Source: an uncultured beta proteobacterium
GTDB taxonomy: Bacteria; Pseudomonadota; Gammaproteobacteria; Burkholderiales; SG8-41
Reading direction: 5' to 3'
Assembly: GCA_963778865.1 (NCBI GenBank)
Contig: CAVZWF010000007.1
Coordinates: forward strand, 70,086 to 134,085
Length of the DNA stretch: 64,000 bases
Shown here piece by piece: positions 1 to 64,000 of this stretch. Each line of letters starts with the position of its first letter. Positions within the stretch are counted from its first letter, which is position 1. The translations under genes and the position numbers were made by a program. Under the pieces are notes generated by a model. It did not search any database and had not been told where the DNA came from. It saw nothing but the letters and a program-made list of their open reading frames with translations.

Positions 1-3000
1 CTGCGCGACGAGATGCACGACTTCGCCCTCCCGCTCGACCACGCCGTATACGCCCAGCAGGCTTGCGCCCAGCAGTTCGCGGCGCTGCCGCTCGCCCAGG
101 TCGCGCCACACGATGACATTGACGTTGCCGGTTTCGTCTTCGAGCGTGACGAACACGACACCCGACGCGGTGTCCGGGCGCTGGCGGCCGGTCACGATGC
201 CGGCGGCGCGCGCGAGCCGTCCGTGCGGCAACCTGCGCAATTCCGCGGCGGTGGAAAGCCGCAGGCGCTGCAAGCGGCGCGCGCAACAGCGCCAGCGGAT
301 GGCGGCCCAGCGTGAGCCCGGTGCTCGCGTAATCGGCGACCAGGTCTTCGCCTTCGCTGGGTGCCGCGAGCGGCGGGATCGTTTCGACGACGGGTGCGGC
401 TTCGAGCAGCGGTGTCGTCGGCTCAACGCCCGCCACCACCCAGTGCGCAAGGTGCCGGTGTCCGGCGAGCGCGCGCCAGCGCATTGGCGCCGGCGAGCAA
501 TTTCAGATCGCGCGCGTCGAGTTGCGCGCGCCGCGCCAGATCCTCGATCGAATCGAAGCCGCGCTGCGCGCGCGCAGCGATCAATGCGCTCGGCGCGCTT
601 TTTCCGCGAAGCCCTTGATCATGCGGAAACCCAGGCGCACGGCCGGTTGGCCATCCGCGCCGCGTTCCAGCGTGCAGTCCCACTCGCTCGCCACGACATC
701 GACCGGCCGCACTTCGACGCCGTGACGGCGCGCGTCCTGCACGAGTTGCGACGGCGCGTAGAAACCCATCGGCTGGCTGTTGAGCAGCGCGGCGAGAAAC
801 GCCGCCGGCTCGTGGCACTTGAGCCACGCCGAGACGTAGACGAGCAGCGCGAAGCTCGCCGCGTGCGATTCGGGAAAACCGTATTCGCCGAAGCCGAGGA
901 TCTGGTGGTAGATCTGCTCGGCGAACTCGCGCTGGTAGCCGCGCGCGAGCATGCCCGTCGATCAGGCGCTGCTCGAAATGCTCGAGCCCGCCTTTGCGCT
1001 TCCACGCCGCCATCGAGCGGCGCAGCTGATCGGCTTCGCCCGGCGTGAAGCCGGCGGCGACCACCGCGAGCTGCATGACCTGTTCCTGGAAAATCGGCAC
1101 GCCGAGCGTGCGCTCCAGCACGTCTCTGCACCGCTGTCGCTCGGATAACTCACCTGCTTCGAGCCCCTGCCGCCGGCGCAGGTACGGATGCACCATGCCG
1201 CCCTGGATCGGGCCCGGGCGCACGATCGCGACCTCGATCACGAGATCGTAGAATTTGTCCGGCTTCAGGCGCGGCAGCATGCTCATCTGCGCGCGCGATT
1301 CGATCTGGAACACGCCGACCGTGTCGGCGCGCTGGATCATCTGCGTAGACCGCGCGGATCTTCGGGCGGCACGTCGGCCATGCGCGAACGGCGTGCCGCG
1401 CCAGTGCGCTGATCATGTCGAGCGCGCGCCGGATCGCGGAGAGCATGCCGAGCGCGAGCACGTCGACCTTGAGCAGGCCGAGCGCGTCGAGATCGTCCTT
1501 GTCCCACTGGATGACGGTGCGCTCCGGCATCGCGGCGTTTTCGATCGGCACCAGCCGCGACAGCAGGCCGCGCGCGATCACGAAGCCGCCGACGTGCTGC
1601 GACAGGTGGCGCGGAAAGCCGCGCGAGCGTGTCGACGAGCGCAATCAGGCGCGCGACCTGCGGGCTCTCGGGATCGAAGCCCGCCTCCGCGAGCCGCTGC
1701 GGCAGCATTTGCCGGTCGTCCCACCACGCGAGCGATTTGGCGAGCCGGTCGACCTGCGCGAGCATCGAAGCCGAGCGCCTTGCCGACGTCGCGCAGCGCG
1801 CTCTTCGGGCGGTAGGTGATGACGGTGGCGGCGAGCGCCGCGCGGTCGCGGCCGTATTTCTCGTAGAGGTACTGGATCACTTCCTCGCGCCGCTGGTGCT
1901 CGAAATCGACGTCGATGTCGGGCGGCTCGTTGCGCTCTCTGCGAAACGAAGCGCTCGAACAGCACGCTCATGCGCGCGGGATCGACTTCGGTGATGCCCA
2001 GCGCGTAGCACACCGCCGAGTTGGCGGCCGAGCCGCGGCCCTGGCACAGAATGTTCTCGCTGCGCGCGAAGCGCGACGATGTCGTGGACGGTGAGGAAGT
2101 ACGGCTCGTAGCCGAGCTCCGCGATCAGCGCGAGTTCGTGCTCGATCAGCTTGCTGCACGCTGTCCGGCGCGCCGCGCGGGAAAGCGCGCGCGCAGGCCT
2201 TCTTCGGTCAGCGCGCGCAGATACGCGGCCGGCGTGTGCCCGGGCGGCACCAGTTCCTCCGGATATTCGTAGCGCAGGCTGTCGAGCGAGAAGTTGCAGC
2301 GCGCGGCGATGCGCACGGTTTCGGCCAGCAAGTTCGGGCGGATAGAGTTGCGCCAGCCGCATGCGCAGGCGCAGATGGCGCTCGGCGTTGGGATACAGCG
2401 CGTGCTGCGCATCGGCGACCGGTGGTGCCGAGGCGGATCGGCGGTCAGCGTGTCCTGCAGCGGGCGGCGCGAGCGCACGTGCATGTGCACGTCGCCCGCC
2501 GCCACGAGCGGCAGTCCGCACGCGGCGCCGAGTTCGCGCAGGCGCTCGAGTTGCGCGCGGTCGTCGGGGCCGCACAGGAGTTCCACCGCGATCCACGCCT
2601 GCCCGCCGAAGCGGCCGGCGACGCGGTGCGCCGCTGCGCGGTCCGGCTCGCGCTCGGGAATCAACAAGACGAGGCAGTCGCCGGCGCCGCGGTCGACATC
2701 GTTCCACTCGAGATGGTAGCTGCCTTTCGCGCTGCGCCGCCGCGCGAGCGTGATGAGCTGCGACAGGTTGCCGTAGGCCTCGCGGTCGGTGGCGAGCAGC
2801 ACGAGCTTCGCGCCGTCGGCGAGGCGGAACTCGGCGCCGATGATGAGCTTCAGCCCGTGTTCTTTGGCCGCGACATGCGCGCGCACGACGCCCGCGAGCG
2901 AGCATTCGTCGGTGATCGCCAGCGCCGCGTAACCGAGTTGCGCCGCGCGCGCGGCGAGTTCTTCCGGGTGCGAGGCGCCGCGCAGAAAAGTGAAGTTGCT

Positions 3001-3057
3001 GACGCAATGCAGCTCGGCGTAGCGCCGGCAGCAGTGCAAGTCGCGGCATGCGTGCAT
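1..3057 (-). pseudogene. dnaE2: Error-prone DNA polymerase III alpha subunit DnaE2 (ImuC); 3' end runs off the window; frame broken repeatedly
   Basis: Consecutive minus-strand ORF pieces lie in alternating frames. They are 2146-3057 (PHP domain, YAELHCVSNFTFLRGAS..AITDECSLAGVV), 1645-2013, 1578-1880, 1337-1765, 1150-1644, 423-1340 ([34 protein letters not shown]) and 581-952 ([27 protein letters not shown]). Bases 1-60 still encode ..GVVEREGEVVHLVAQ, so the C-terminus lies beyond position 1. Confidence 0.85.
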
Positions 3058-63138: not shown

Positions 63139-63905
63139 TGGCCGCCGTGCAGGCGTTGCGCGTGCTGGTCGTCGACGACGAGGCGCCCGCGCGCAATCGC
63201 CTGCGCGACCTGCTTGCCGACTGCGCGCTCAAGCTGCCGCTCGAAATTGCCGGCGAAGCCGCGACCGGCCGCGAGGCGCTCGCGCTCTTGCCGGCGTGCG
63301 ACGCCGACGTGGTGCTGCTCGACATCCGCATGCCGGAAATCGACGGCATCGAAGTCGCGCAGCACATCCAGAAGCTCGATGAGCCGCCGGCCGTCATATT
63401 TACCACCGCCTATGACGCGTATGCGCTGAAAGCGTTTGAAGTGCACGCGATCGATTACCTCTTGAAGCCGATCCGGCTCGGCCGCCTCTTTGAGGCGCTG
63501 TCGCGCGCTCGCTCGCTCGCGCCTTTGCGGCTCGACGTGTTGCGCGAGATAAAGCCGGACGCGCGCAGCCACTTATCGGTCAACGAACGCGGGCGCATCC
63601 ACCTCATACCGGTGGCGGACATCGCGTTTCTCAAAGCGGAACTAAAATACGTGACGGTACGCACGGCGCAGCGCGAATTTCTCCTCGAGGAATCGCTGGC
63701 CAGGCTCGAGCAGGAGTTTTTCGGGCGTTTCGTGCGCATACACCGCAATTGCCTGGTCGCCAAGGATGCGATCCGCGGTTTCGAGCGTGCCACCGACGCC
63801 GACGGCGAGGGCCACTGGTTGGTGGTGCTGAACAACATCGCCGAGAAGCTCGACGTCAGCCGGCGCCAGCAGCATATCGTACGCGAACTGGGGAAAATCC
63901 TATGA
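63138..63905 (+). CDS. algR: LytTR-family response regulator (AlgR-like)
   Basis: Intact 255-aa ORF. The receiver domain reads LRVLVVDDEAPARNRL..DVVLLDIRMPEIDG..IDYLLKP. The LytTR domain reads ..IAFLKAELKYVTVRTAQREFLLEESLARLEQEF..FVRIHRNCLV... Its start overlaps the kinase stop. The symbol is assigned by synteny only. Confidence 0.75.
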   Translation: MAAVQALRVLVVDDEAPARNRLRDLLADCALKLPLEIAGEAATGREALALLPACDADVVLLDIRMPEIDGIEVAQHIQKLDEPPAVIFTTAYDAYALKAFEVHAIDYLLKPIRLGRLFEALSRARSLAPLRLDVLREIKPDARSHLSVNERGRIHLIPVADIAFLKAELKYVTVRTAQREFLLEESLARLEQEFFGRFVRIHRNCLVAKDAIRGFERATDADGEGHWLVVLNNIAEKLDVSRRQQHIVRELGKIL

Positions 63906-64000
63906 TGTCACGACTGTTGGCCGTGTGGATCCTGGCGCAAGCCGCGAACGCGGTGGCGGCGGACGCGCCATTCGGCGTGCTCGACATTACCCTCGGGGCG
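63902..64000 (+). CDS. 5' end of a secreted/periplasmic protein (partial, runs off window)
   Basis: There is an ATGA overlap with the algR-like stop. MMSRLLAVWILAQAANAVAADAPFGVLDITLG.. looks like a signal peptide. Only 33 codons are visible. Confidence 0.4.
   Translation, partial: MMSRLLAVWILAQAANAVAADAPFGVLDITLGA

Follow-up and report, generated by a model that had tools for sequence, protein, structure and literature searches.

In this report, we examine the frame disruptions that crowd a stretch of 64 kb (about 64% GC; hereafter the window, that is, all of the DNA that was analysed) from the assembly of an uncultured beta proteobacterium (GCA_963778865.1, contig CAVZWF010000007.1, positions 70,086 to 134,085). 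At least 83 such events were catalogued in 30 of its approximately 60 genes, and we infer from the sequence that they are very probably consensus errors of the deposited assembly rather than mutations of the organism. When a variant of this explanation is also counted, in which the errors would stem from a mixture of strains, an artefact of one kind or the other is slightly more probable still. The genes are best taken to be intact, and the disruptions are not a biological feature. A preliminary description of the window had arrived by hand at about 33 disrupted genes out of some 60 and at 60 shifts or more, a picture that is borne out and was, if anything, slightly understated. It had left two explanations open, region-specific errors of assembly or consensus on the one hand and an extremely recent, selective gene decay on the other: the former is strongly supported by the results below, and the latter is not supported. 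Two features go beyond that description, namely the almost exclusive direction of the events, which are insertions, and their dependence on GC.

Detection, direction and context of the events

The events were located through three approaches, which are concordant. A six-frame Viterbi path based on codon usage revealed dozens of frame switches on the same strand, and the proteins stitched along this path were matched to Pfam. They gave single-stretch and essentially full-length matches that cross the junctions (DNA_pol3_alpha 2-260/260 across 5 junctions, TctC 2-268/274 across 3, Peripla_BP_6 1-332/343 across 8), with further matches on stitched proteins such as CoA_transf_3 1-366/366 and GlutR_N 2-151/151, so that the family similarity described earlier on both sides of the shifts is recovered as continuous domains. 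The stitched path is free of in-frame stops, in line with the earlier impression that such stops were almost lacking; one apparent stop, at 41564, was discarded, as it falls in a short out-of-frame stretch between the insertions at 41519, 41565 and 41599. The events were placed with a purpose-written frameshift-aware protein-to-DNA aligner, the references being orthologues from 164 loci of genome and metagenome collections, paralogues from the window itself and homologues from a representative library. In these alignments (80-95% identity), the same family continues in the shifted frame on both sides of the breaks. Finally, nucleotide alignments with 3 to 6 intact relatives (75-92% nucleotide identity) were read for the columns that are found only in the window or are missing from the window only. 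The alignment to orthologues, which had been proposed as a check, places the events and finds the relatives intact: all these genes are uninterrupted in them (loci L001-L008 and L162-L164, mostly short-read assemblies with k141_ or NODE_ contigs), and the extra bases are window-specific columns. The stop-to-stop open reading frames (ORFs) of high-GC relatives also generated spurious events at gene boundaries (30950, 32048, 34592-34635, 35606, 44006-15, 49372, 51847, 62070 and 63110), which were excluded after comparison with the called genes. Three additional candidates, at 3024, 3032 and about 24183, are unverified and stand outside the catalogue.

The direction of the events is strikingly uniform. 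Insertions account for 80 of them (74 of 1 nt and 6 of 2 nt) and deletions for only 3, all of 1 nt (at about 4747, at about 60306 and at 60918), which corresponds to a share of 96% and to a bias of 27:1 towards insertion (binomial p 2e-20), with detection methods that are symmetric for the two types. The nucleotide alignments alone, which cover about 21 kb, contain no window-specific single-base deletion in genes other than those at 4747 and 60918, and in the comparison of the 46.1-50.8 kb region to three relatives, 15 insertions within genes are specific to the window, while no deletion is. Whole-codon gaps are also lacking in the disrupted genes of this second ATP-binding cassette (ABC) operon when they are compared to their orthologues, and the 83 inactivating events include neither nonsense codons nor larger deletions nor insertion sequence (IS) elements.

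The context of the insertions was studied on the 49 that could be resolved to the nucleotide. The inserted base is the same as a neighbour in 10 of them, versus 38% expected from the background (p 0.012), while 39 are isolated and only 2 lie in runs of at least 3. The preliminary description had stated that the indels were not confined to homopolymers; they are in fact depleted there. Both examples that it gave could be recognized among the events, the extra base of GCAGCG near 5590 being the event at 5596, within GCAGCG on the gene strand, and the change of G to GG near 18322 being the AAG-G-ATA site at about 18317. The composition of the inserted bases is that of the background (p 0.37), and their codon phase is uniform (14/14/17). 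No motif is shared by the 49 sites, the information reaching at most 0.12 bit per position within 10 nt on each side, which is inside the sampling null; CGC/GCG contexts are in weak excess (14 observed vs 6.8 expected, p 0.006). A context resembling a methylation motif was considered and dropped, as this weak excess does not amount to any single motif. Errors in homopolymer length, such as those that are left by nanopore, HiFi, 454 or Ion Torrent sequencing, were rejected given the scarcity of bases that repeat their neighbour, and phase-variable contingency loci were set aside too, the contexts of the sites not being those of simple-sequence repeats or homopolymer tracts.

Clustering and dependence on GC

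The events are over-dispersed along the window (variance/mean 2.9 per kb, chi-square p 2e-13), and the strong clustering that had been noticed by eye is thus confirmed. The regional rate ranges from 0 to about 5 per kb. Dense blocks are found at 0-5.7 kb (30 events, 5.3/kb), 12.8-15.9 kb (7 events), 38.3-44.8 kb (13 events) and 46.1-51.0 kb (16 events), with bursts of 4 insertions in 70 nt at 1341-1407 and of 3 in 40 nt at 47058-47099. Event-free stretches extend over 5.6-12.86, 22.2-27.3, 32.3-38.4, 51.0-60.3 and 61.5-64 kb; the blocks previously listed as clean (5.9-12.0, 33.3-36.8 and 51.8-59.7 kb) all lie inside these stretches, which are somewhat wider.

The density of events climbs monotonically with the GC of 1-kb bins (Spearman 0.52, p 1e-5), from 0.09 events/kb where GC is below 0.62 to 0.84 at 0.62-0.64, 1.29 at 0.64-0.66, 1.92 at 0.66-0.69 and 4.0 where it is at least 0.69. 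The broad composition is the better predictor: GC over 1-4 kb gains 28-32 in log-likelihood, versus 18 for the 100-nt scale, and dominates the joint model. The event-free blocks all have a GC of at most 0.639, save for the alcohol dehydrogenase at 44770-46077 (0.653). This gene had been singled out as intact amid a disrupted block, and it does show no event and no gap against four orthologues, with a gapless nucleotide identity of 92% to L164. At the rate of its flanks, however, the probability of finding no event in it is about 0.03, which makes it a mild exception only and not strong evidence of selectivity.

Origin of the extra bases

Several proteins of the window are represented by exact records in public databases: the GGDEF-EAL protein, RF1, the alcohol dehydrogenase and the thiamine pyrophosphate (TPP) enzyme are products of one 185,775-bp contig (NCBI, ENA), from which the window comes. 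A truncated N-terminal HemA of 103 amino acids (aa) and an equally truncated GMC oxidoreductase of 443 aa are called proteins of this same contig, so the extra bases are part of the deposited consensus. The extra bases, almost always single and occasionally in pairs, each shift the reading frame forward by one, and gene callers hence emit truncated or internally garbled proteins from ordinary genes that are intact in all the relatives compared. The regional rate would most likely reflect uneven read support or uneven polishing, which may in turn follow GC. Under one option, a long-read consensus would have received short-read correction only where the GC-biased short-read coverage sufficed; under another, the depth of the long reads would have been low.

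Gene fragmentation by indels is known in long-read assemblies (PMC12007338; bioRxiv 10.1101/2021.08.23.457338). Under-polished long-read assemblies and metagenome-assembled genomes (MAGs), as addressed by proovframe, Kastor, ARAMIS and IDEEL-type checks, have much in common with the window: broken ORFs in which homology continues in another frame, many events per gene, intact relatives, deposited truncated proteins, and a dependence on region or coverage. They differ in the type of error, as the documented residues are mostly errors in homopolymer length, with deletions in nanopore and high-GC PacBio data, whereas those of the window are 96% insertions and are homopolymer-depleted. Indeed, the residual errors of nanopore assemblies are mainly homopolymer deletions (PMC12007338), and polished PacBio assemblies of high-GC genomes show deletions in C/G homopolymers (PMC8574707). 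Raw PacBio errors, on the other hand, comprise about 8% of insertions vs 3% of deletions, as summarised in the proovframe preprint (bioRxiv 10.1101/2021.08.23.457338). The insertion-dominated and context-blind spectrum of the window appears to resemble raw errors of the PacBio continuous long read (CLR) type more closely than those of nanopore, HiFi, 454 or Ion Torrent. This likeness, that of an insertion-dominated and largely context-independent spectrum, is one of spectrum only, and the rate in the window (about 0.1-0.5%) is that of a consensus and not of raw reads.

Four points weigh against consensus error. The artefact is deduced from the consensus sequence and not from reads, coverage or quality values. 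Its signature is unlike the best-documented residual errors, that is, the homopolymer deletions of nanopore and the C/G homopolymer deletions of high-GC PacBio data. The comparisons returned no conspecific sequence (above 96% aa identity) in which the uncorrupted version could be read directly: identity to relatives reaches at most 91% for RF1 in a scan of species-representative genomes and at most 96% for the alcohol dehydrogenase and HemA. Lastly, the intact alcohol dehydrogenase, with its GC of 0.653 inside a dense block, indicates that the rate depends on more than GC.

The extra bases could also come from a mixture of strains, in which both alleles of a single nucleotide polymorphism (SNP) would be emitted in series by the consensus, leaving a one-base insertion at each polymorphic site. 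This would account for the insertion-only direction, for inserted bases that are unlike their neighbours and have a background-like composition, and for regional clustering, at hot spots of microdiversity. SNPs between strains should nevertheless gather at third codon positions, whereas the insertions are uniform in phase (14 of 45 at phase 2), and both the 2-base insertions (6 of 80) and the bursts of 4 in 70 nt fit poorly. We grant this mechanism a very slight chance; it is still an artefact, which differs from plain consensus error in mechanism only.

If the frameshifts were instead true mutations, the organism would be undergoing a real and extremely recent pseudogenisation, a massive decay like that of a mutator or of a bacterium newly restricted to a host. 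Such a decay would agree with the breakage of half of the genes, with the presence of the defects in the deposited sequence and with a disruption that is unequal among genes; a high fraction of genes with disrupted frames is generally known from types such as Mycobacterium leprae, Sodalis and Shigella. In these types, however, nonsense codons and deletions are mixed with IS insertions, and selection is relaxed; nothing of this is seen in the window. Bacterial indel spectra are deletion-biased, as was reportedly described by Mira, Ochman and Moran in 2001 and by Kuo and Ochman in 2009, while insertions outnumber deletions here by 80 to 3; natural +1 insertions come mostly from slippage within runs of one nucleotide, which the insertions of the window avoid. 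Their density tracks GC at the kilobase scale, and normally indispensable genes are affected, the earlier claim that hemA, argH and lexA are hit being correct (insertions at 32296, 61486 and 5596, and the deletion at 60918 in argH). The ratio of nonsynonymous to synonymous substitution rates (Ka/Ks) points in the same direction: up to about 19 events in one gene leave it unchanged, and it does not follow the number of events per gene, being 0.16-0.21 for the binding-protein gene with 10 hits, 0.15 for the one ATPase of that operon that is intact and 0.13-0.23 for genes with 1 to 3 hits, although pairwise Ka/Ks has limited power for very recent events. We therefore regard decay as very unlikely. 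The extra bases might also be real products of a very recent burst of template-independent single-base insertions, which would favour GC-rich regions and avoid homopolymers; to our knowledge, such a process has no bacterial precedent, and we give it as slight a chance as the mixture of strains. If it were true, it would be curious that the most heavily affected locus is the lexA-imuA-imuB-dnaE2 mutagenesis cassette. Finally, the extra bases could be real and bypassed, through programmed +1 ribosomal frameshifting or deletion editing of the RNA. The same +1 correction is indeed needed at nearly all events, and in prfB or in Euplotes such a correction restores the protein. Yet the 49 sites have no common sequence signal and no shifty-stop motif, the stop of the old frame is not at the shift sites but 6 to about 1,900 nt downstream, the orthologues of all relatives are unshifted, and a single gene would need up to 19-20 shifts, far too many; recoding has hardly any probability.

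Taken as consensus errors, the events leave about half of the proteins predicted from the contig truncated or internally scrambled, such as the 429-aa binding-protein ORF, the 103-aa "HemA" and the 443-aa GMC oxidoreductase. Any count of pseudogenes, estimate of completeness, metabolic reconstruction (haem, arginine, SOS response) or clustering of proteins that is based on this assembly would be misled, while frameshift-aware correction or re-polishing gives back ordinary genes. The value of the observation is that of a quality flag for the assembly and for its garbled proteins in public databases, and its unusual signature (insertions at 96%, depleted in homopolymers and governed by GC at the kilobase scale) makes a search for the pipeline behind it worthwhile.

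Disrupted and intact genes

The gene content of the window is ordinary for a betaproteobacterium. It comprises the lexA-imuA-imuB-dnaE2 cassette, AtuA, a GGDEF-EAL protein and hemA-prfA-prmC; several TctC/Bug receptors with CoA-transferases and PrpD/HMGL-like enzymes; and two branched-chain-type ABC operons on either side of an Fe-alcohol dehydrogenase, followed in this inventory by the TPP enzyme, a TRAP transporter and argH. The closest relatives are MAGs of uncultured Betaproteobacteria/Burkholderiales from lakes, soils and groundwater. Scans of the 64-kb window gave no match in Rfam and no tRNA, and the 62-kb contig that bears the public protein P0016 is not syntenic with the window. The disrupted and intact features are collected in Table 1.

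Table 1. Features of the window, with the events placed in them and the evidence used for each
Feature	Coordinates	Strand	Events	Evidence
dnaE2 (error-prone Pol III alpha; runs off window start)	1..3080	-	~19-20 insertions: 274, 473, 581, 597, 957, 1129-1130 (CA), 1161, 1343, ~1351, 1382, 1407, 1622, 1763, 1941, 2072, 2155, 2176, 2330, 2421, 2440; unverified candidates 3024, 3032	6 orthologues agree (frameshift-aware); nucleotide alignment with 5-6 relatives; 80% aa identity to L082 once corrected
imuB (IMS/Y-family-like)	3065..4490	-	6 single-base insertions: 3444, 3492, 3809, 3869, 4052, 4317	6/6 references; 6 relatives aligned
imuA-like	4428..5240	-	insertions 4546-4547 (TA), 4618, 5043; 1-nt deletion ~4747	alignments
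lexA	5150..5756	-	insertion 5596	6/6 references; LexA_DNA_bind 1-65/65 across junction
Event-free block, GC 0.626 (hypothetical gene, NMT1-like, AtuA, AtuA-ferredoxin, GGDEF-EAL)	5757..12800		none	no frame switch inside genes; AtuA 1-436/437; GGDEF-EAL 0 events vs 4 homologues, 100% identical to public protein P0121
3-hydroxyacyl-CoA dehydrogenase	12139..13063	-	+1 shift ~12858	codon-usage path junction; 3HCDH_N 2-179/180 across junction; no orthologue reference
Methyltransferase	14013..14800	-	insertions ~14160, ~14530	alignment to intact paralogue 13129-13905; codon-usage path
TctC/Bug-family receptor	14892..15876	-	insertions 15201, ~15490, 15704, ~15813	6/6 references for three; TctC 2-268/274
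TctC-family receptor	18170..19142	-	insertion ~18317 (AAG-G-ATA)	5/5 references
MmgE/PrpD-family	20513..21867	-	+1 shifts ~20693, ~20883	codon-usage path; MmgE_PrpD_C 1-172/173 across both; no orthologue reference
TctC-family receptor	22040..23006	-	insertion ~22226	6/6 references
TctC-family receptor	26456..27500	+	insertion ~27322	5/5 references
Family III CoA-transferase	27578..28830	-	insertions 27779 (G), 28774 (T)	4-5 relatives aligned; CoA_transf_3 1-366/366
TctC-family receptor	28830..29772	-	insertions 28990 (C), 29030 (C), 29615 (T)	91% aa identity to L008 once corrected
PEP-mutase/isocitrate-lyase-family	29977..30898	+	insertion 30246	11 loci in tblastn; alignments
D-2-hydroxyacid dehydrogenase	30951..31945	+	insertion 31518	12 loci in tblastn; alignments
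hemA (glutamyl-tRNA reductase)	32067..33321	+	A inserted at 32296	64 loci in tblastn; alignments; stitched protein 96% identical over 99% of length to >100 intact 417-aa HemA proteins
Event-free core of stretch 32.3-38.4 kb, GC 0.622 (prfA, prmC, glutaredoxin, one minus-strand gene)	33318..37140		none	0 events vs 6 relatives
GMC oxidoreductase	37144..38749	+	insertion ~38335-38371	535-aa cluster mate P0382, 90% identity; GMC_oxred_C 1-139/139
DUF7847-like	38750..39618	+	insertion ~39018	frameshift-aware alignment
ABC operon 1 (binding protein, 2 permeases, 2 ATPases)	39930..44733	+	~11 insertions: ~40527, ~40957, ~41093, 41374, 41519, 41565, 41599, ~42740, ~42792, ~43325 (2 nt), ~44106	codon-usage path; Pfam on stitched proteins; paralogue alignment; permease 1 via homologues at 68-91% identity
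Fe-alcohol dehydrogenase / hydroxyacid-oxoacid transhydrogenase	44770..46077	+	none; intact	0 events, 0 gaps vs L001, L163, L164, P0362
ABC operon 2, periplasmic binding protein	46133..47422	+	10 insertion events, 12 nt in total: 46329, 46571, ~46660, 46725, 46963-4 (GC), 47058, 47070, 47099, 47246, 47310-1 (GA)	3 relatives aligned; corrected aa identity 84-86% to two orthologues, 75% to L162
ABC operon 2, two permeases and first ATPase	47550..50192	+	insertions 47742, 47815, 48064, 48898, 49959	alignments
ABC operon 2, second ATPase	50132-50782		none; intact	
EamA-family transporter	50810..51725	+	insertion ~50984	L164 orthologue alignment; codon-usage path
Event-free block, GC 0.629 (TPP enzyme, TRAP DctMQP, two LacI-type regulators, small ORF)	51001..60300		none	TPP enzyme 96% identical to L164, 0 events; DctM 2-413/413
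Fructosamine-kinase-family	59823..60706	-	1-nt deletion ~60306, insertion ~60450	2/2 references; Fructosamin_kin 2-287/288
argH (argininosuccinate lyase)	60707..62100	-	1-nt deletion 60918, G inserted 61486	6/6 references; 6 relatives aligned

The SOS mutagenesis cassette (lexA-imuA-imuB-dnaE2), on the minus strand at 1-5756, is complete; no other part of the window is as rich in GC (0.70) or as heavily hit (30 events). The two ABC operons differ in the references that were available. For the first, the best match in a plasmid collection is only 34% identical, and paralogues and homologues from the representative library were used instead. Among the public homologues of its permease at 41323-42214, four (P0383, P0384, P0388 and P0391) carry N- or C-terminal parts that are scrambled, rich in arginine or in some other way unrelated, and look frameshifted themselves, which suggests similar artefacts in other public assemblies of related organisms. 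In the second operon, the ORF of the binding protein at 46133-47422 runs uninterrupted between the true start and stop codons (429 aa), because the 12 inserted nucleotides are a multiple of three. Gene callers would thus take it for a full-length protein, with several internal stretches out of frame; the protein collection has no exact match to this garbled sequence. This second operon (46100-50800) is absent in L164, where the alcohol dehydrogenase is directly followed by EamA and the TPP enzyme, and is present in L001, L162 and L163, which points to an accessory insertion/deletion polymorphism in the lineage.

Two observations concern the event-free blocks. A YjgF/RidA-like gene on the minus strand (23722-24199) has no in-frame start, an ATG being found six codons upstream in another frame; dropping one A of the AAA at about 24182-24184 would join the two frames, which makes this a candidate insertion in an otherwise event-free block. 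An event at 53576, suggested by the public TPP enzyme P0380 (615 aa), was rejected, as the 586-aa orthologue of L164 matches the window end to end. The C-terminus of P0380 differs from both the TPP enzyme of the window (51845-53605) and that of L164, each of 586 aa, and P0380 itself may carry a frameshift or a read-through.

The region at 14.9-29.8 kb, with five TctC/Bug-family solute receptors among family III CoA-transferases and HMGL-like, MmgE/PrpD, HpcH aldolase and PEP-mutase-family genes, is a typical organic-acid catabolic neighbourhood of Burkholderiales. At lower coordinates, the methyltransferase-domain genes at 13129-13905 and 14013-14800 (minus strand) are tandem paralogues, 67% identical and with signal-peptide-like N-termini, of which the first is intact. 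Several intergenic segments are also peculiar to the window. Compared to all aligned relatives, it has insertions of 14 nt at 31969-31982, of 7 nt at 37028-37034 and of 26 nt at 47450-47475, which resemble natural variation in length of the ordinary kind and not the events of 1-2 nt inside genes. Between prfA and prmC (34456-34583), an intergenic element of 128 nt has imperfect inverted-repeat arms of 42 nt with a complementarity of 76%; all six aligned relatives lack about 97 nt of this element, and it looks like an insertion of the REP/MITE type.

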